Source: a virus (Duplodnaviria > Heunggongvirae > Uroviricota > Caudoviricetes). Taken from it: DNA of 4,163 bases. Each line of letters opens with the position of its first letter. Position 1 is the first letter of the stretch. Where the stretch lies: IMG/VR virus record IMGVR_UViG_2740892423_000018; one strand, given 5' to 3'. Of the stretch, positions 126 to 4,163 are shown in pieces. A program made the position numbers and the translations under genes. The notes under the pieces are model-generated. The model saw nothing but the letters and a program-made list of their open reading frames with translations, was not told the DNA's origin and ran no database searches.

Positions 126-467
126 ATGATTACTAAAAATTTCCGACTGAATGCGCTGGCGAATAAGTATGCGTCGGCACTGTATAACCACATTACCTCC
201 ACCAGCGGCGGGGACTATTTCATGGTTGATGCGGACGGCCTCGCCGTCCGTGTGGAAATCGTCAATGGAGTAAAAGGCGTTCGCAGCCTGATCGATAGCT
301 ACACACTGGCAGCCATGAAAGTGTTCTACCCGCAGTGGGAAACCGTGGGGATCGAGCTTCTTGATCGTTGCGTCACTAAGGACGGATTGACTGACGTCGG
401 GCGCGAGATATGGCAAAGCATGATTAATGATATGGGCGCGACCGTGGCAGGAGGCAACCATGCGTAA
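126..467 (+). CDS. hypothetical small protein (113 aa), translationally coupled to the downstream primase gene
   Basis: ATG at 126 preceded by GAGGA (114-118) at 7-nt spacing. Protein-like composition with no low-complexity runs. Stop TAA 465-467 overlaps the primase start ATG 460-462 (ATGCGTAA). Same strand as all neighbouring genes. No recognisable motif. Confidence 0.6.
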   Translation: MITKNFRLNALANKYASALYNHITSTSGGDYFMVDADGLAVRVEIVNGVKGVRSLIDSYTLAAMKVFYPQWETVGIELLDRCVTKDGLTDVGREIWQSMINDMGATVAGGNHA

Positions 468-3219
468 TATCGACCTTATCCGCGAAGTGACCAGCGCCGC
501 AGCAGGGCGCTGGCCTTATGTGCTGGCTGGATTGTCTATCGACGTGCCTGATTCATCGCGCCGCCATTCTCCATGCCCTGCATGTGGTGGAAAAGACCGT
601 TTCAGATTCGACGACAACGGGCGCGGTAGCTTTATCTGCAACCAGTGTGGCGCTGGTGACGGGCTGGATTTAATCAAGCGGGTTAACAACTGCGACACTA
701 CGGAGGCGGCACAGCTTGCCGCTGACGTGCTGGGTATTGATTACCGGGCAGCGCAAACCGACCCGGTGGCAGCGAGCCATAGAAGAGAGCAACTGGAAGC
801 TGACCGCCAGCAGCGTGAGCAGGAGCGCCAGAAACAGGCAGCAGAGGACGCAGAGCAGCGAAGGGCTACGTTTGCCCGTCTGTATGCCGGAATGCGCCAG
901 AGTGTCACACAGGGCGAATCTGATTACCTGCAATCAAAAGGGCTGACCGGGTTTAATTACCCGGTTATGTCTGATGGTTCGCTACTCCTGCCGCTGGTGG
1001 ATGAATCCGGCGCAGTAGTGGCGGCGCAGACCATCACGCCGCAGGGAGATAAACGACTCCTGACAGGTTCAGCAAAGCGCGGGGCATATCACGCCGTAAA
1101 CGCGCCAGAATCGCCGCAGAGCGTTTTAATTGCCGAGGGGCTGGCGACGGCCCTTTCAGTTCACCTGATGCGCCCGGACGCGCTGGCAGTGGCAGCAATT
1201 GACGCGGGCAACCTGCTACCCGTTGCCGAAGTGATGCGCCGGAAGTATCCACAGGCACAAATAATCATCGCCGCAGACAACGACCACCACCAAAACGGAG
1301 AAGCCAATACAGGCAGGGAGGCCGCAGAGAAAGCCGCCTTGTCCGTGGCTGGATGGGTGGCACTGCCGCCGACAGACTACAAAGCCGACTGGAACGACCA
1401 CCACCAGCAAAACGGGCTGGAAGTCGCTACGGCTGCGTTTAACGACTCGATGTACCAGATTCAAGGGGAAGCCGTTAAACCACGATTGCAGGCCATTGAG
1501 GGCGGTAAAACTGACCATCCAGAGAAAGACCCACTAAAACCCCACATTGAGAGCCGAAAAGATGGCGTTTTCTGGGTAACGCCGAAGGTGGACAAGGAAA
1601 GCGGGGAGATCATCAACGCTGAAAGCTGGTTATGTTCACCGTTGGAGGTTATCGGCACGGGACGCGACGACAAAGATCAGTATCTTATTATCTCATGGCT
1701 GGCATTCGGTGCAGGCATACGGACAACAGCGGCTATCCCGCTGGCTGATATTGGCGAGCGTGAAGGCTGGCGCACCCTGAAAGCTGGTGGCGTCAACGTC
1801 ACAACGAAAAACAGCCTACGGGCGATTCTTGCCGACTGGTTACAGCGAAGCGGCTCGCGTGAATTGTGGCGCGTTGCTCATGCTACAGGCTGGCAGTGTG
1901 GGGCATACATCATGCCGGACGGGGAAATCATCGGCACACCTCAGCGGCCTGTTTTGTTCAGCGGGCGCAGTTCAGCCGCTGCCGGGTATACCGTAGCAGG
2001 AACGCCTGAAAGCTGGCTTAACAGTGTTGCGCGGCTGGCATACGGCAACTACGCGATGATGACAGGCATCGCCGCAGCACTGGCAGCGCCATTAATCGGG
2101 GTGGCAGATCGTGACGGATTCGGAATTCATTTTTATGAGCAATCGAGCGCCGGGAAAACAACCACGCAGAACGTGGCGAGCAGTCTTTACGGCAACCCTG
2201 ATGCCTTGCGCCTGACGTGGTATGGGACGGCGCTGGGGCTGATAAACGAGGCCGCCGCCCACAATGACGGGCTGATGCCGCTGGATGAAGTCGGACAGGG
2301 CGCAGACCCGATAAGCGTTTCTCAGTCTGCCTATGCCCTGTTTAACGGCGTGGGGAAATTGCAGGGAGCAAAGGAAGGAGGCAACCGGGATCTGAAACGC
2401 TGGCGCACCGTGGCAATCAGCACCGGGGAAATGGATTTAGAAACGTTCATCGCCACCGCAGGACGCAAGACAAAAGCGGGGCAACTGGTGCGACTGCTGA
2501 ATATCCCGCTGAGTAAGGCGGTGCGCTTTCATGAGCACCAGACAGGGAAAGATCACGCCGACGCGCTGAAAGACGCTTACCAGCACCATCATGGCGCTGC
2601 CGGGCGGGAGTGGATTAGATGGCTTTCAGACCACCAGCAGCAGGCGATTGATGCCGTTCGTGAGTGTGAAGCCCGATGGCGAAGTCTAATCCCTGCTGAC
2701 TATGGGGAACAGGTTCACCGTGTAGGGGCGAGGTTCGCCATTCTGGAGGCCGCTTTACTGCTGGGTGGCGTGGTTACTGGCTGGGATGCTCAAACGTGCC
2801 GTGATGCGATACAGCACAGCTACAATGCGTGGTTGCGTGAGTTCGGCACGGGGAACAAAGAGCACCAGCAGATTATTGAGCAGACGGAGGCGTTTTTGAA
2901 TGCCTATGGGCTGAGTAGATTCGCGCCGCTGGGTTATGACCCGCGCGATTTACCCATCCGTGATTTAGCCGGGTACAGGAAGAAGGGGAACCACGACGGC
3001 GACCCGATAATTTTCTACACCTTCCCGGCAACATTTGAGCAGGAGATCGCACGGGGTTTTAATGTCAGGCAGTTTGCCGAAGTTCTCAAGAATGCAGGAA
3101 TGCTAACACCACCAACGAGCGGGCGAGGTTATCAGGGGCGGGTAAGGGAAGGAGGGCGGCAAATTCGCGTTTATGTGCTCAACTTCATGGATGAGGAAAG
3201 CAGCCAGCCAGAAGAATAA
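460..3219 (+). CDS. primase/helicase-like replication initiation protein: N-terminal Cys4 zinc ribbon + TOPRIM (DnaG/P4-alpha-type) primase core + C-terminal P-loop NTPase region
   Basis: Open frame 427-3219. Preferred start is ATG 460 (MRNIDLIREV...) because AGGAGG at 449-454 sits 5 nt upstream; the ATG at 427 has no SD and would overlap the upstream ORF by 41 nt. Zinc ribbon CPAC...CNQC encoded at nt 574-648. TOPRIM glutamate motif IAEGLATA (nt 1129-1152, resembling the EGYATA motif of P4 alpha and plasmid primases) and DxD motif IIAADNDHH (nt 1261-1287). Walker A-like SSAGKTTT (GKT at nt 2152-2160) and Walker B-like LMPLDEV (DE at nt 2284-2289). Stop TAA 3217-3219. Confidence 0.88.
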   Translation: MRNIDLIREVTSAAAGRWPYVLAGLSIDVPDSSRRHSPCPACGGKDRFRFDDNGRGSFICNQCGAGDGLDLIKRVNNCDTTEAAQLAADVLGIDYRAAQTDPVAASHRREQLEADRQQREQERQKQAAEDAEQRRATFARLYAGMRQSVTQGESDYLQSKGLTGFNYPVMSDGSLLLPLVDESGAVVAAQTITPQGDKRLLTGSAKRGAYHAVNAPESPQSVLIAEGLATALSVHLMRPDALAVAAIDAGNLLPVAEVMRRKYPQAQIIIAADNDHHQNGEANTGREAAEKAALSVAGWVALPPTDYKADWNDHHQQNGLEVATAAFNDSMYQIQGEAVKPRLQAIEGGKTDHPEKDPLKPHIESRKDGVFWVTPKVDKESGEIINAESWLCSPLEVIGTGRDDKDQYLIISWLAFGAGIRTTAAIPLADIGEREGWRTLKAGGVNVTTKNSLRAILADWLQRSGSRELWRVAHATGWQCGAYIMPDGEIIGTPQRPVLFSGRSSAAAGYTVAGTPESWLNSVARLAYGNYAMMTGIAAALAAPLIGVADRDGFGIHFYEQSSAGKTTTQNVASSLYGNPDALRLTWYGTALGLINEAAAHNDGLMPLDEVGQGADPISVSQSAYALFNGVGKLQGAKEGGNRDLKRWRTVAISTGEMDLETFIATAGRKTKAGQLVRLLNIPLSKAVRFHEHQTGKDHADALKDAYQHHHGAAGREWIRWLSDHQQQAIDAVRECEARWRSLIPADYGEQVHRVGARFAILEAALLLGGVVTGWDAQTCRDAIQHSYNAWLREFGTGNKEHQQIIEQTEAFLNAYGLSRFAPLGYDPRDLPIRDLAGYRKKGNHDGDPIIFYTFPATFEQEIARGFNVRQFAEVLKNAGMLTPPTSGRGYQGRVREGGRQIRVYVLNFMDEESSQPEE

Positions 3220-3244
3220 TCTTTTTTCACATACGTAGTTTTAG

Positions 3245-3271
3245 TGTTGTCTCTGTTGTCTTTGTTGTCTC
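3245..3271. repeat. left triple-iteron block TGTTGTCTC-TGTTGTCTT-TGTTGTCTC (left arm of a 27-bp inverted repeat)
   Basis: Three head-to-tail 9-mers. Exact reverse complement of 3478-3504. Confidence 0.85.
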
Positions 3272-3316
3272 ATTTTGTAAGTTACATTGATTTATAAGGA
3301 TTTTATTTTAATTTCT
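3272..3316. other. AT-rich tract between iteron groups; candidate DNA unwinding element
   Basis: attttgtaagttacattgatttataaggattttattttaatttct is strongly AT-biased and lies between the left triple block and the direct iterons. A second AT-rich tract (ctatttttgtttatatacaaaaaaat, ~3505-3530) follows the right block. Confidence 0.4.
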
Positions 3317-3410
3317 GAGACAACATTGAGACAACATTTAGCCATTTTGAGACAACAGGGCGAACGTGTGTTTTTAGTCCGGCAGGCAGTGAGACAACAT
3401 TTATGCCGGG

Positions 3411-3442
3411 TGAGACAACACGAAATTGCAAATGTTGTCTCA
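3411..3442. repeat. inverted repeat TGAGACAACA-(12 bp)-TGTTGTCTCA built from two iterons in opposite orientation
   Basis: Arms 3411-3420 and 3433-3442 are perfect reverse complements; spacer cgaaattgcaaa (3421-3432). Confidence 0.8.
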
Positions 3443-3477
3443 GCAAAACCCAGACGTGGCGCGGCCTGTAGAGCCGT

Positions 3478-3504
3478 GAGACAACAAAGACAACAGAGAC
3501 AACA
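3478..3504. repeat. right triple-iteron block GAGACAACA-AAGACAACA-GAGACAACA (right arm of the 27-bp inverted repeat)
   Basis: Exact reverse complement of 3245-3271, including the variant middle unit. Confidence 0.85.
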
Positions 3505-3607
3505 CTATTTTTGTTTATATACAAAAAAATCTGGCGAAGGTGTCCCACAATAAGACGGTGCCGGGCAATCTTCATTAGCAAAACTAATAATTCGAGGTAT
3601 TCGCAAA

Positions 3608-4069
3608 ATGACAGCACAGATATCAGCCTACGGGCGGCTGGTGGCAGATCCCCAGACCAGAACGACAAACAGCGGCGGCAGCATGACAATGGGGCGTTTA
3701 GCGGTGGCACTGCCTTGCCATGCAGCAGAGGGCGGAGAGGTTACTTTCTGGCTGGGCGTGGTGGCATTCGGCAAACAGGCCGACGCACTGGCAGGACACG
3801 TTAAAGGCGATTTAGTCAGTGTTGCCGGAGCGATGCAGGTCAATCAGTGGGCGGGCAAGGATGGCGGTACACAGCAGGGGTATCAGGTAGTAGCCGACAG
3901 CGTGATCAGCGCCAGAACGGTACGCCCCGGCGGGAAGCGGGCCGAGTCAGTCAAAGCAAGTGGAGCCAGCAGGGGCCACGAAACGCAATCCGCGCCGGGA
4001 TGGGAGCTATATAACACCCCTGATGATTTTGACCAGCGCCCACCATTCGACGATGAAACGCCATTCTGA
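3608..4069 (+). CDS. ssb: single-stranded DNA-binding protein (SSB-like OB fold with acidic C-terminal tip)
   Basis: 153 aa. N-terminal region aligns by eye with E. coli SSB: ISAYGRLVADPQTRTTNSGG vs [20 protein letters not shown], and WLGVVAFGKQADALAGHVKGDLVSVAGAMQVNQW vs [35 protein letters not shown]. Gly/Ser/Pro-rich linker, then tail ...DDFDQRPPFDDETPF resembling the SSB tip DDDIPF. GAGG at 3594-3597 lies 10 nt upstream of ATG 3608. Stop TGA 4067-4069. Confidence 0.82.
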   Translation: MTAQISAYGRLVADPQTRTTNSGGSMTMGRLAVALPCHAAEGGEVTFWLGVVAFGKQADALAGHVKGDLVSVAGAMQVNQWAGKDGGTQQGYQVVADSVISARTVRPGGKRAESVKASGASRGHETQSAPGWELYNTPDDFDQRPPFDDETPF

Positions 4070-4080
4070 GGGGGGTGAAC

Positions 4081-4163
4081 ATGGTAAACGACAGCAAAGC
4101 TGAGGATCTGGAAGCAAAAGGGCTGTACCGACGCGCCGCCGCGCGATGGATGGAAGTCATGCT
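4081..4163 (+). CDS. 5' end of a small downstream gene (partial), possibly a PerC-family-like regulator
   Basis: ATG 4081 preceded by GAGGGGGG (4068-4075) at 5-nt spacing, overlapping the ssb stop. Translation MVNDSKAEDLEAKGLYRRAAARWMEVM runs off the window. The RRAAxRW-type N-terminus resembles, from memory only, PerC/Pch-like small regulators of enterobacterial prophages and islands; not verified. Confidence 0.45.
   Translation, partial: MVNDSKAEDLEAKGLYRRAAARWMEVM

Follow-up and report, generated by a model that had tools for sequence, protein, structure and literature searches.

The window, that is the whole stretch of 4,163 nucleotides that was analysed, contains the pri-rep gene, which encodes an initiator protein of 919 aa (460..3219, + strand) and was recognised from its open reading frame, the RefSeq annotation, Pfam and PDB sequence matches. 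The stop codon of this gene ends at position 3219, and the first of a series of short repeats (iterons) begins at 3245. Downstream of the repeats, also on the + strand, lie the ssb gene of the replication module (3608..4069, 153 aa) and the 5' part of a gene for a PerC-family regulator (4081..4163), which is typical of Gram-negative PICIs.

In RefSeq, the initiator is named 'TOPRIM and DUF927 domain-containing protein', and Pfam recognised in it a DUF927 domain as well as Zn-ribbon and Toprim domains (PF08273 and PF13362). The Zn-ribbon covers residues 34-69, the Toprim primase residues 222-319, the DUF927 helicase residues 367-645 and the C-terminal helical and winged-helix part approximately residues 731-919. 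The phmmer search of Pri-Rep against the PDB sequences matched 8tch (E 4.9e-7) and also 5dgk, whose chains are named SaPIbov1 Rep and SCCmec Cch, respectively, in the fold search. The AF2 model of residues 731-919 (pLDDT 89) gave Foldseek matches to 8tch (E 2e-5), to 5dgk and to the DNA-bound winged helix 5vfx. The TM-scores to 8tch and 5dgk were modest (0.40-0.44), which may reflect the two-part architecture of the model. The strands of the modelled wing are located at positions 163-167 and 170-179 of the C-terminal domain (CTD), and the first strand of this predicted hairpin carries the wing segment, Rep residues 893-897 (GRVRE), encoded at 3136..3150 (+). From these matches and the predicted fold, the protein can be classed as a Rep-type helicase whose C-terminal winged helix is the putative origin-binding domain.

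According to the annotation of locus L001, the window belongs to an E. coli island of approximately 12 kb situated between yicC and dinD, with co-oriented genes for int, an AlpA-like HTH protein, AntA/B, DUF4222, Ash, an Icd-like protein, Pri-Rep, SSB and PerC. The hallmarks of Gram-negative PICIs are thus present, namely int, alpA and pri-rep in a perC context, the common orientation of all genes, a size within about 10-20 kb and a specific attachment site. At the level of the RefSeq annotation, the island carries no capsid, terminase or other packaging genes, and perC is followed only by hypothetical genes and a gene for a pRiA4b ORF-3 family protein. Owing to the lack of annotated packaging genes, the island could be defective or represent a different satellite subtype. 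Elements without such a module are scored as incomplete 'Type C' PICIs in a passage of PMC11773190.

The island was found in 33 near-identical copies, most of them at similar chromosome coordinates, and the related island of strain ET479 occupies the same dinD-side site. Related islands have also been deposited as closed circles of 17.8-21.8 kb, and one relative lies within an island of E. coli 042. Relatives of the rep gene are present in about 950 of the 5,426 complete E. coli genomes. A near-identical contig of 13.9 kb was filed in IMG/VR by its classification pipeline.

Anatomy and conservation of the iteron array

Between pri-rep and ssb, positions 3242-3272 and 3477-3507 form a perfect inverted repeat of 31 bp. 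The arms are exact reverse complements with 204 bp in between (approximately 233 bp from centre to centre), and at 80% complementarity the inverted symmetry reaches 54 nt (3219-3272 / 3477-3530). Repeat analysis resolved each arm into three iterons at a 9-bp pitch: L1 (3245-3253), L2 (3254-3262) and L3 (3263-3271) on the - strand, inverted with respect to the inner array, and R1 (3478-3486), R2 (3487-3495) and R3 (3496-3504) on the + strand. In the middle unit of both arms (L2 and R2), the variant AAGACAACA replaces GAGACAACA. The preliminary description had reported that the 27 bp of 3245-3271 (TGTTGTCTCTGTTGTCTTTGTTGTCTC) are the exact reverse complement of 3478-3504, variant middle unit included, that the match extends about 3 bp into the flanks and that the two blocks bracket the array. 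All of this was confirmed: the extension comprises 3 bp outward (TAG/CTA) and additionally 1 bp inward (A/T), and the two triple blocks are the outermost iteron copies.

With at most one mismatch allowed, GAGACAACA occurs 12 times in the window, every time inside 3245-3504, whereas shuffled sequences contained 0.91 +/- 0.90 copies and none of the 200 shuffles attained 12. The six inner iterons are I1 (3317-3325), I2 (3328-3336), I3 (3349-3357), I4 (3391-3399) and I5 (3412-3420) on the + strand and I6 (3433-3441) on the - strand; their start-to-start steps of 11, 21, 42, 21 and 21 bp are helically phased. The left arm is followed by an AT-rich spacer of 43 bp and 16% GC (3273..3315), a candidate DNA-unwinding element placed between opposed iteron sets. 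This main AT-rich stretch adjoins the left block and does not lie midway between the arms. The interval beside the right arm is a GC-rich spacer (3443..3476, 68% GC) whose core TGGCGCGGC is conserved across iteron classes, and a second AT-rich stretch of 24 bp and 12% GC (3508..3531) lies just outside that arm. DnaA-box-like matches were at chance level (7 versus 5.4 expected), and no match to the IHF consensus was found. Two open reading frames overlapping the array, 3287-3553 (+) and 3303-3710 (-), are unannotated in RefSeq and were rejected as genes because homologues keep the positions and orientation of the iterons but exchange the repeat sequence as a whole on both strands.

The layout was compared among 54 homologous loci. 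Exactly 12 iterons were present in 23 of them, 17 of which have the layout of the window, and six iterons in 17 of the 54. Practically every homologue has the left block, I1-I3 are perfect in 84-93% of 45 homologous loci, and the AT-rich spacer is kept in both the 6- and the 12-iteron homologues. The common six-iteron core therefore consists of the left block, the spacer and the three direct iterons I1-I3 (3317..3357), while I4-I6 (3391..3441) occur only in the 12-iteron homologues. The right block was absent from the 17 loci whose iterons number exactly six, and likewise from E. coli 042; the translated reps among these loci are full length. In the 6-iteron relatives, ssb or perC follows within ~40 bp after the last iteron. 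Orthologous loci keep the layout even where Rep identity is as low as 55%, and the block-to-block gap measures 204-209 bp in 21 of the 25 two-block loci, a narrow range compatible with a constraint on spacing. As judged from this distribution, the right-hand cluster is optional across the relatives. The idea of the pair of blocks as the essential core could not be upheld, as the right block is missing from the loci named above and the AT-rich stretch adjoins the left block. All seven loci of the window's own iteron class retain both blocks, with arms identical or one position apart, and for this lineage the right block may therefore be required.

At least seven iteron sequences were found among the homologues, each with its own wing motif. 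Residues 893-897 are fixed as GRV-RE in all six aligned Reps of the GAGACAAC class, and the same wing segment reads RKSPR(I/V) in 16 of 16 Reps of the GAACCAAC class; further loci agree with both. The iteron class thus tracks a small number of wing residues (893-897) in the winged helix predicted for the initiator, which form its main class-specific segment. The Rep of ET479 is 100% identical to that of the window over many 30-residue stretches and 50-80% identical in the C-terminal ~120 residues, and every iteron of the ET479 origin has switched to GAACCAACA. The DNA identity between the two islands is about 90% and drops to 48-74% only across window positions 2860-3650. The C-terminal domain of Rep and the origin are thus exchanged jointly as a cassette.

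Proposed working of the origin and alternative readings

The region 3220-3531 is probably the replication origin of a Gram-negative PICI-type island of ~12 kb, built of a core and an optional distal cluster. The proposal in the preliminary description that the arms consist of iterons, to which the initiator of a replication origin would bind, appears correct; indirect support for specific binding and autonomous replication comes from the covariation of Rep wing residues with iteron class and from the closed circles as which related islands are deposited. The 9-10 bp repeats (T)GAGACAAC(A) would be read by the C-terminal winged helix of Pri-Rep, and Pri-Rep would be an MCM-like initiator-helicase that, as a protein of the SaPI Rep / SCCmec Cch type, loads itself. 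The inverted left triple block, the 43-bp spacer of 16% GC and I1-I3 would make up the working core, where Rep attached to the two opposed iteron sets would melt the spacer and be loaded at that place. Together, I4-I6 and the right triple block (the distal half) would form a second, optional Rep-binding cluster at a conserved distance, raising the number of sites to 12, as many as the winged helices of two hexamers, although the equation of 12 with 2x6 is numerology. Most likely, the distal half strengthens cooperative assembly or seats a second hexamer, possibly looping back to the left block; the 12%-GC stretch beside the right arm would make a second melting site possible there. The two oppositely oriented helicase assemblies put forward in the preliminary description are also the published working model for the homologous SaPI Rep/ori system (PMC9371898). 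Taken this way, the locus is an origin of a known kind, and the perfect inverted repeat would reflect ordinary origin architecture and recent shared ancestry, with no new mechanism.

In a different reading, the arms would form a matched pair of which neither can be spared; gene conversion or selection would keep them identical, and each would load one of two opposed helicases so that replication proceeds bidirectionally from between them. The evidence on arm identity comes firstly from the window's own class, which was represented by seven loci with four haplotypes. In all seven loci, both arms carry the imperfect middle unit. Perfect mirroring is seen in three of the four haplotypes, although these vary among themselves at the junction (T or A) or in the flank (TAG or GGG); the fourth, L121, has an asymmetric junction (G versus A). 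The distance between arms is 0.25 within a locus and 1.75 between loci (P~0.08, n=4). A scan of sequence collections with GTTGTCTNNGTTGTCTNNGTTGTCT returned 214 matches, nearly all of them unrelated 9-bp-periodic sequence, the only informative ones being L121, which is a new haplotype, and the near-identical L230. Locus L297, a Raoultella 'plasmid' of the same iteron class, was left out of the analysis of arm evolution because of frameshifts and stops in rep and a degraded left block.

In the GAACCAAC class (11 haplotypes), the left arm showed 3.4 differences from other left arms and 4.0 from its own right arm, and a stable asymmetry (left middle unit GTTAGTTCA, right middle unit perfect) is common to ET479, L009, L010 and L013. 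Perfect arms of 30-35 bp were also present in L024, L048, L046 and L059; those of L024 and L048 consist of consensus units only, so their perfection is explained by site-by-site selection. The earlier claim that the blocks are maintained as a unit is therefore weakly borne out within the window's own class, by its mirrored haplotypes, and fails in the GAACCAAC class, where the arms diverge independently, the outcome that the preliminary description had itself named as speaking against it. Suggestive covariation of the arms is confined to the iteron class of the window. That the arms match is mainly due to their both being built from three copies of one binding site, and identity at non-consensus positions probably stems from recent common descent or from occasional homogenisation in this lineage, with no family-wide rule. 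The conserved spacing of the arms and the two hexamers proposed in the SaPI literature are also in line with an obligatory pair, but the right arm is missing from many relatives, and it is a GC-rich interval that adjoins it, the AT-rich stretch at 3273-3315 touching the left arm only. We consider an obligatory pair possible but rather doubtful.

The dispensability of the distal half in many relatives, its conserved distance and its number of sites, equal to that of the core, would also fit a control or enhancer locus serving copy control, Rep titration, 'handcuffing' or looping in the manner of P4 crr. The cis elements ori and crr of P4 and the handcuffing of plasmids by iteron clusters provide precedents. 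Copy control would matter for the related islands that exist as closed circular records. Moreover, in one E. coli genome (L004) a non-cognate origin is present in three additional tandem copies, which indicates that origin arrays can persist where no Rep matches them, but this tandem arrangement may be an artefact of the assembly. The burst replication that satellites presumably need on induction argues against negative control, and a control function of the distal half is on the whole unlikely.

The optional-cluster reading can also be carried further. The 12-site array would then serve as the template on which a Rep double hexamer docks, with one winged helix per iteron, and the triple blocks matched landing pads ~22 helical turns apart, joined by looping. 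Some lineages would homogenise units of 31-35 bp by intramolecular gene conversion, and the five-residue wing segment (GRVRE or RKSPRI) would serve as a swappable code that re-targets all twelve sites. Coexisting satellites would thereby avoid cross-talk, and some, such as L004, would carry arrays of rival origins as decoys. This extended scheme is speculative, and we would give it little credence as a whole.

It is improbable that Rep uses the right block as an operator to control ssb-perC transcription, with the left block affecting termination or read-through of rep. The right block does lie ~100 bp upstream of ssb, beside an AT-rich stretch, and the short distance from the last iteron to ssb or perC in the 6-iteron relatives agrees with such a role. 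However, no sigma-70-like promoter was predicted on the + strand in 3100-3700, near ssb, promoter and terminator counts did not exceed those of shuffled sequences, and the island genes are co-oriented and said in PMC6092414 to be transcribed unidirectionally from upstream.

Finally, an RNA stem or cruciform, or the terminal inverted repeats of a small mobile element, can practically be dismissed: the single-strand fold (-65.9 kcal/mol, z = -9.3 versus shuffles) follows automatically from the inverted iterons, Rfam at E<=1 returned only two sub-threshold matches, to miRNA-precursor families, which reflect the long hairpin, and no family at the gathering score, the arm units are the same as the six dispersed inner copies, and the arms of homologues change in step with the Rep wing without preserving pairing and are often mismatched or absent. 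No target-site duplication was seen at the arm ends when the sequence was read by eye, and, together with the shared repeat units and the layout conserved among orthologous loci, this led to the rejection of a MITE or other insertion.

Related replication systems and significance

The closest systems are the PICI and SaPI origins, which are located immediately 3' of the initiator gene according to PMC6092414 and PMC9371898; in the former, the rep-ori segment of EcCICFT073 is described as driving plasmid replication. The region in the window likewise lies 3' of its initiator gene and has opposed iteron sets (L1-L3 on the - strand, I1-I3 on the + strand) around a 16%-GC stretch, its 12 iterons falling within the range of 6-12. 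It shares with the origins of Gram-negative PICIs (such as EcCICFT073; Fillol-Salom et al. 2018, PMC6092414) the location 3' of a fused pri-rep and two opposed sets of short iterons around an AT-rich stretch. An island of O157:H7 that carries capsid genes has a DUF927 relative (about 66% DNA identity), the same order of rep, intergenic region, ssb and perC, and an outer inverted pair of tandem iterons (26 nt, 88%); its iteron is TAACCCGCA, unlike GAGACAACA in the window island, and, unlike the capsid-carrying PICIs, the latter has no annotated capsid or packaging genes.

The SaPI Rep/ori systems (SaPIbov1, SaPI1, SaPI5 PriRep5; 8tch) are similar in that, according to PMC9371898, a hexameric initiator-helicase that loads itself acts through its C-terminal winged helix on 6-12 short iterons directly downstream of rep, with at least two opposed iterons per side of an AT-rich region, and two hexamers are proposed. 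The resemblance of Pri-Rep to SaPIbov1 Rep in sequence and in predicted fold was given above. Unlike in SaPIs, the host is Gram-negative, a Toprim/Zn-ribbon primase is fused to Rep, the iterons are of 9-10 bp instead of 5-6 bp, and the AT-rich stretch is off-centre, the array being a core with a distal half and not two equal halves. In the parts of the PICI and SaPI origin literature available to us, we found no description of a 12-site layout with two triple blocks of 9-bp pitch, of a 6-site short form or of a correlation with wing residues.

More distant systems share single features. The P4 alpha protein combines primase, helicase and origin-binding functions, has a C-terminal DNA-binding domain and acts on short octamer repeats that form two clusters, ori and crr, which lie about 4.5 kb apart and consist of TGTTCACC iterons. 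Pri-Rep has a Zn-ribbon and Toprim primase as well, and the N-terminal primase third of its gene is 90-92% identical in DNA to E. coli genes annotated as 'phage/plasmid primase, P4 family'. Its helicase is of the DUF927 (MCM-like) type and not of the D5/DUF5906 type of P4 alpha, and Pox_D5, D5_N and DUF5906 gave no Pfam match in Pri-Rep at E<=0.01. The window also differs from P4 in its iteron GAGACAACA and its single 260-bp array, in which the clusters lie 120-230 bp apart in one intergenic region, and sid, psu and delta genes are absent from the annotation of the island.

In iteron plasmid and lambda-type origins, phased initiator sites stand beside an AT-rich unwinding element and extra clusters can act in copy control, the iterons are of 17-22 bp, and the initiators are not helicases and need host DnaA/DnaB loading; the chance-level DnaA-box-like matches set the window apart from them. 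To our knowledge, no phage nuclease targets the origin of the window's initiator family, unlike that of the PLE satellites of Vibrio cholerae. In PLE, too, the initiator's DNA-binding domain and the iteron origin covary and are exchanged jointly, according to Barth et al. 2021 (PMC8263062), where the initiator is an unrelated RepA_N protein and the iterons are semi-palindromic and about 30 bp long.

The result on the arms is mostly clarifying. Phage satellites of this type are common and move virulence and defence genes, so that knowledge of the site and mode of their replication aids annotation and manipulation. Moreover, the family offers a natural experiment in which near-identical initiators, a few wing residues apart, appear to read different 9-mers at identical positions; with a five-residue swap, one could thereby directly test the code by which a self-loading MCM-like helicase recognises its sites. 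Likewise, the natural 6-site and 12-site versions of the origin would provide a direct test of what the second iteron cluster contributes.

The iteron array and its relation to known origins

The stretch 3478-3504 is the exact reverse complement of 3245-3271, as a preliminary description of the sequence had claimed, and the pairing is slightly stronger than the 27 bp described there, being perfect over 31 bp (3242-3272 against 3477-3507; inter-arm distance 204 bp) and extending over 54 nt at 80% complementarity. Each arm is composed of three 9-bp units, GAGACAACA / AAGACAACA / GAGACAACA (L1-L3 at 3245-3253, 3254-3262 and 3263-3271 in the left block, R1-R3 in the right), and the variant middle unit AAGACAACA is present in both arms, likewise in agreement with that description. 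The 9-mer GAGACAACA, with at most one mismatch, occurs in 12 copies in the 4,163-bp window, all inside 3245-3504; the expectation from 200 dinucleotide-preserving shuffles was 0.91 copies, and none of the shuffled windows reached 12. The six inner iterons (I1-I6) start at 3317, 3328, 3349, 3391 and 3412 on the plus strand and at 3433 on the minus strand, and their steps of 11, 21, 42, 21 and 21 bp place them on one helix face. The array occupies the gap between the 919-aa ORF (460-3219), which encodes the initiator Rep, and ssb (3608-4069), downstream of which lies a PerC-family gene.

The kind of feature is already known: it is an iteron origin 3' of pri-rep, as in phage-inducible chromosomal islands (PICIs) and SaPIs. 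In Gram-negative PICIs, the origin directly adjoins the 3' end of the initiator gene (Fillol-Salom et al., PMC6092414), while SaPIs carry 6-12 iterons immediately downstream of rep, with an AT-rich region and at least two iterons per side in opposite directions, recognised by a winged helix of the C-terminal domain of Rep (Qiao et al., PMC9371898). The window array fits this plan, as the segment 3273-3315 (43 bp, 16% GC) lies between L1-L3 on the minus strand and I1-I3 on the plus strand. The portions of the literature searched yielded no description of the window origin, of the grammar of 12 or 6 sites or of a correlation between wing residues and iteron type.

Further elements were observed in and around the array. 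The spacer that separates I6 from the right block (3443-3476, 68% GC, core TGGCGCGGC) is well kept across iteron classes (E. coli ET479, L121, copy 1 of L004 and L298), while the other spacers diverge, and it includes a weak terminator-like hairpin on the minus strand (3468-3451). A perfect DnaA-box-like 9-mer, TTTTTCACA, is located at 3223-3231, just beyond the left arm, where ET479 has TTATTCACA, and a one-mismatch copy, TTATATACA, at 3515-3523, just beyond the right arm. The total of seven DnaA-box-like matches, against 5.4 expected, is no excess over chance.

The initiator protein and the island

The domains found in the 919-aa protein are a primase-helicase zinc ribbon, Toprim and DUF927. 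A phmmer search against PDB sequences retrieved 8tch (E 4.9e-7, residues 471-815) and 5dgk, which the fold search names as SaPIbov1 Rep and SCCmec Cch, respectively. The AlphaFold model of residues 731-919 (mean pLDDT 89, 35 aligned sequences) had the same two structures as its top Foldseek matches in the PDB (8tch, E 2e-5), followed by 5vfx, the pCW3 relaxosome winged-helix protein solved on oriT DNA, which covers the last ~110 residues. Based on these results, Rep is predicted to combine a primase and a Rep-type helicase in one fused protein that ends in a helical and winged-helix domain. The first ~1050 nt of rep (window 460-1509, zinc ribbon and Toprim) show 90-92% DNA identity to 'phage/plasmid primase, P4 family' genes and 75% to DUF5906 genes of other E. 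coli; since the remainder of rep does not match these genes, the primase domain seems to have been shuffled among helicase types.

Window DNA was found at an identity of at least 99.8% in 33 of 5,426 complete E. coli genomes, always in the chromosome. In E. coli TKEC21-59, it lies within an island of ~12 kb between yicC and dinD, to which a 13.9 kb IMG/VR contig is nearly identical. The co-oriented island genes encode an integrase, an AlpA-like HTH regulator, AntA/B, DUF4222, Ash, an Icd-like protein, the primase-helicase, SSB and PerC; the annotation of this island shows neither capsid nor terminase genes. Its gene content and order match those of Gram-negative PICIs (PMC6092414, PMC11773190).

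Closed circular 'plasmids' of 17.8-21.8 kb are also islands of the window type: K. pneumoniae pKpvST101_3 (L298, CP031370.2), CP031371.2 and a Raoultella record (L297, NZ_CP146545.1). Genes for AlpA, an antirepressor, DUF4222 and PerC are found in L298 and L297, and L298 also has an integrase-like DUF4102 gene. The L298 origin is a standard 12-iteron GAACCAAC origin, while L297 combines an origin of GAGACAAC type with many frameshifts in rep. These records suggest excised or episomal forms of the island.

Origin layouts and comparison of the arms

The homologue scan, with one genome per species, gave 76 loci across Enterobacterales, of which 54 had usable sequence downstream of rep. Typed by the most frequent downstream 8-mer, these 54 contain at least seven iteron types: GAGACAAC (the class of the window), GAACCAAC (the larger class), GAACCGAC, TACCCGAC, AAACCGAC, TAACCCGT and GACACACT. 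The window layout of 12 iterons (three inverted, AT spacer, 2+1 direct, two direct, one inverted, three direct) was found in 17 loci with four iteron types and Rep identity down to 55%, and in two more with a distant one-mismatch match (13 counted). Five loci have 12 iterons arranged as 2+4+3+3 and one has another 12-iteron variant. Exactly six iterons, namely the left triple block, the AT spacer and three direct copies, were present in another 17 loci, where ssb or perC comes directly after and the translated Reps are full length; E. coli 042 also has the short form. An O157:H7 island with capsid genes has TAACCCGCA iterons with an outer inverted tandem pair (26 nt at 88%). The comparison of layouts shows that all have a core of left block, AT spacer and I1-I3 in common, and that the right block is part of an optional distal half at a conserved distance. 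Of the 25 loci with both blocks, 21 have a gap of 204-209 bp between them.

Two IMG/VR contigs, apparently elements different from the island, carry AAGACAACC and GGTTGTCTT, three copies each, as inverted triple blocks (L243:10766-10886 and L267:146-257). The blocks have the same design and 9-bp pitch, lie roughly 60-70 bp apart and share part of the motif with the window.

The suggestion that the blocks are maintained as a unit is weakly supported. The window class comprises seven loci with four haplotypes, three of which have perfectly mirrored arms: with T at the junction of units 1 and 2 (window, L005), with A (L006, L007, L008) and with the flank GGG instead of TAG, giving a 34-bp perfect repeat (L016). 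The fourth (L121) is asymmetric, with G on the left and A on the right. The mean arm-to-arm distance in this class was 0.25 within and 1.75 between loci, with a permutation P of 0.077 for only four haplotypes. Within the GAACCAAC class (11 haplotypes), however, the arm distances gave no sign of concerted evolution: they were 4.0 within a locus, 4.33 between left and right arms of different loci and 3.4 between left arms, so that orthologous arms cluster. The perfect arms of L024 and L048 contain only consensus units, and their identity is thus explained by site-by-site selection. The variant middle unit is in both arms in 7/7 window-class loci. In the GAACCAAC class, ET479, L009, L010 and L013 share a left variant, GTTAGTTCA, whose counterpart in the right arm is perfect. 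Overall, conservation is lowest at the left middle unit, which is perfect in 38% of 45 loci, with its neighbours at 82-100%. It is plausible that the arms were homogenised as units in the lineage of the window, but this is not a trait of the whole family. The imperfect middle unit is more readily understood as a site under weak constraint within a densely packed block of 9-bp pitch.

Covariation of Rep and iterons and the proposed mechanism

The island is also present in E. coli ET479, at the site it occupies in the window's genome; all iteron positions are kept there, and every GAGACAACA core is replaced by GAACCAACA. Many 30-residue stretches of its Rep are 100% identical to the window Rep, whereas identity falls to 73-83% at residues 796-885 and 50% at 886-919. 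The L016 Rep is far more divergent overall, yet it is 86-93% identical over these C-terminal residues and its locus has the iteron of the window. All six aligned GAGACAAC-class Reps share G825 and residues 893-897, which are found in 0/16 GAACCAAC-class Reps, with GRV-RE at 893-897 in the former and RKSPRI/V in the latter. In the AlphaFold model, residues 893-897 make up the first strand of the wing hairpin. The same rule is obeyed by L121, L004, L017, L021, L060, L015 and E. coli 042, and the remaining iteron types have their own wing motifs. The repeats are probably binding sites of the upstream protein, for which this covariation, with the cassette described next, is the strongest indirect support. 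The DNA of the ET479 and window islands is ~90% identical, falls to 48-74% across window 2860-3650 only and recovers to 86-100% within ssb, which indicates that the winged-helix domain and the origin travel jointly as a cassette. This resembles the exchange of RepA_N together with ori in PLE satellites, which was shown experimentally (PMC8263062). The ssb leader (window 3532-3607) is ~50 bp shorter in ET479, so the origin-to-ssb distance is variable.

Several loci have mixed origins. In E. coli 19AR0656 (NZ_CM132277.1, L004:3900-6500), a GAACCAAC-class Rep with wing RKSPRI and its cognate GAACCAAC origin are followed by three identical 713-bp tandem copies of the GAGACAAC-class origin, which is non-cognate here; every copy includes a truncated 5' end of ssb. 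This could be recombination between two satellites with amplification, perhaps as a decoy or for incompatibility, or an artefact of long-read assembly. Two Klebsiella loci (L017, L021; wing RKSPRI) have, in the first ~150 bp after rep, four GAACCAAC and two GAGGCAAC units, the latter at L3 and I2, and could represent intermediate stages or tolerated variants on the way from one iteron type to another (GAACC / GAGGC / GAGAC). Cedecea davisae (L060) has a six-iteron core of GAACCAAC type and then, ~170-300 bp after rep, decayed remnants (TGTTGCCTCA; GAGAAAGCAGAGACAACA) similar to the distal half of an origin of GAGACAAC type, which suggests a chimeric origin with an eroding non-cognate half.

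Given the covariation and the homology to SaPI Rep, winged helices of Rep would bind the two iteron sets of opposite orientation, L1-L3 and I1-I3. The 16%-GC spacer between them would then be opened and the helicase would load itself there, as suggested by the PICI/SaPI precedent and the universality of the core. The distal half, to which the right block belongs, may be a second Rep-binding cluster that brings the number of sites to twelve, which matches two hexamers, and may act via cooperativity, looping or the seating of a second hexamer; the evidence for this role consists of the recurrence of 6 and 12 as site numbers and the conserved spacing. Since a stretch of 12% GC (3508-3531) adjoins the right block on its outer side, a second opening site may be located there. 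One rival reading takes the distal half as a copy-control or P4 crr-like element, while an operator for ssb-perC and a purely structural role of the inverted repeat have little support.

The perfect inverted repeat is in itself unsurprising; the main value of the probable origin is that it offers a clean natural system in which to test how a self-loading helicase reads its origin.
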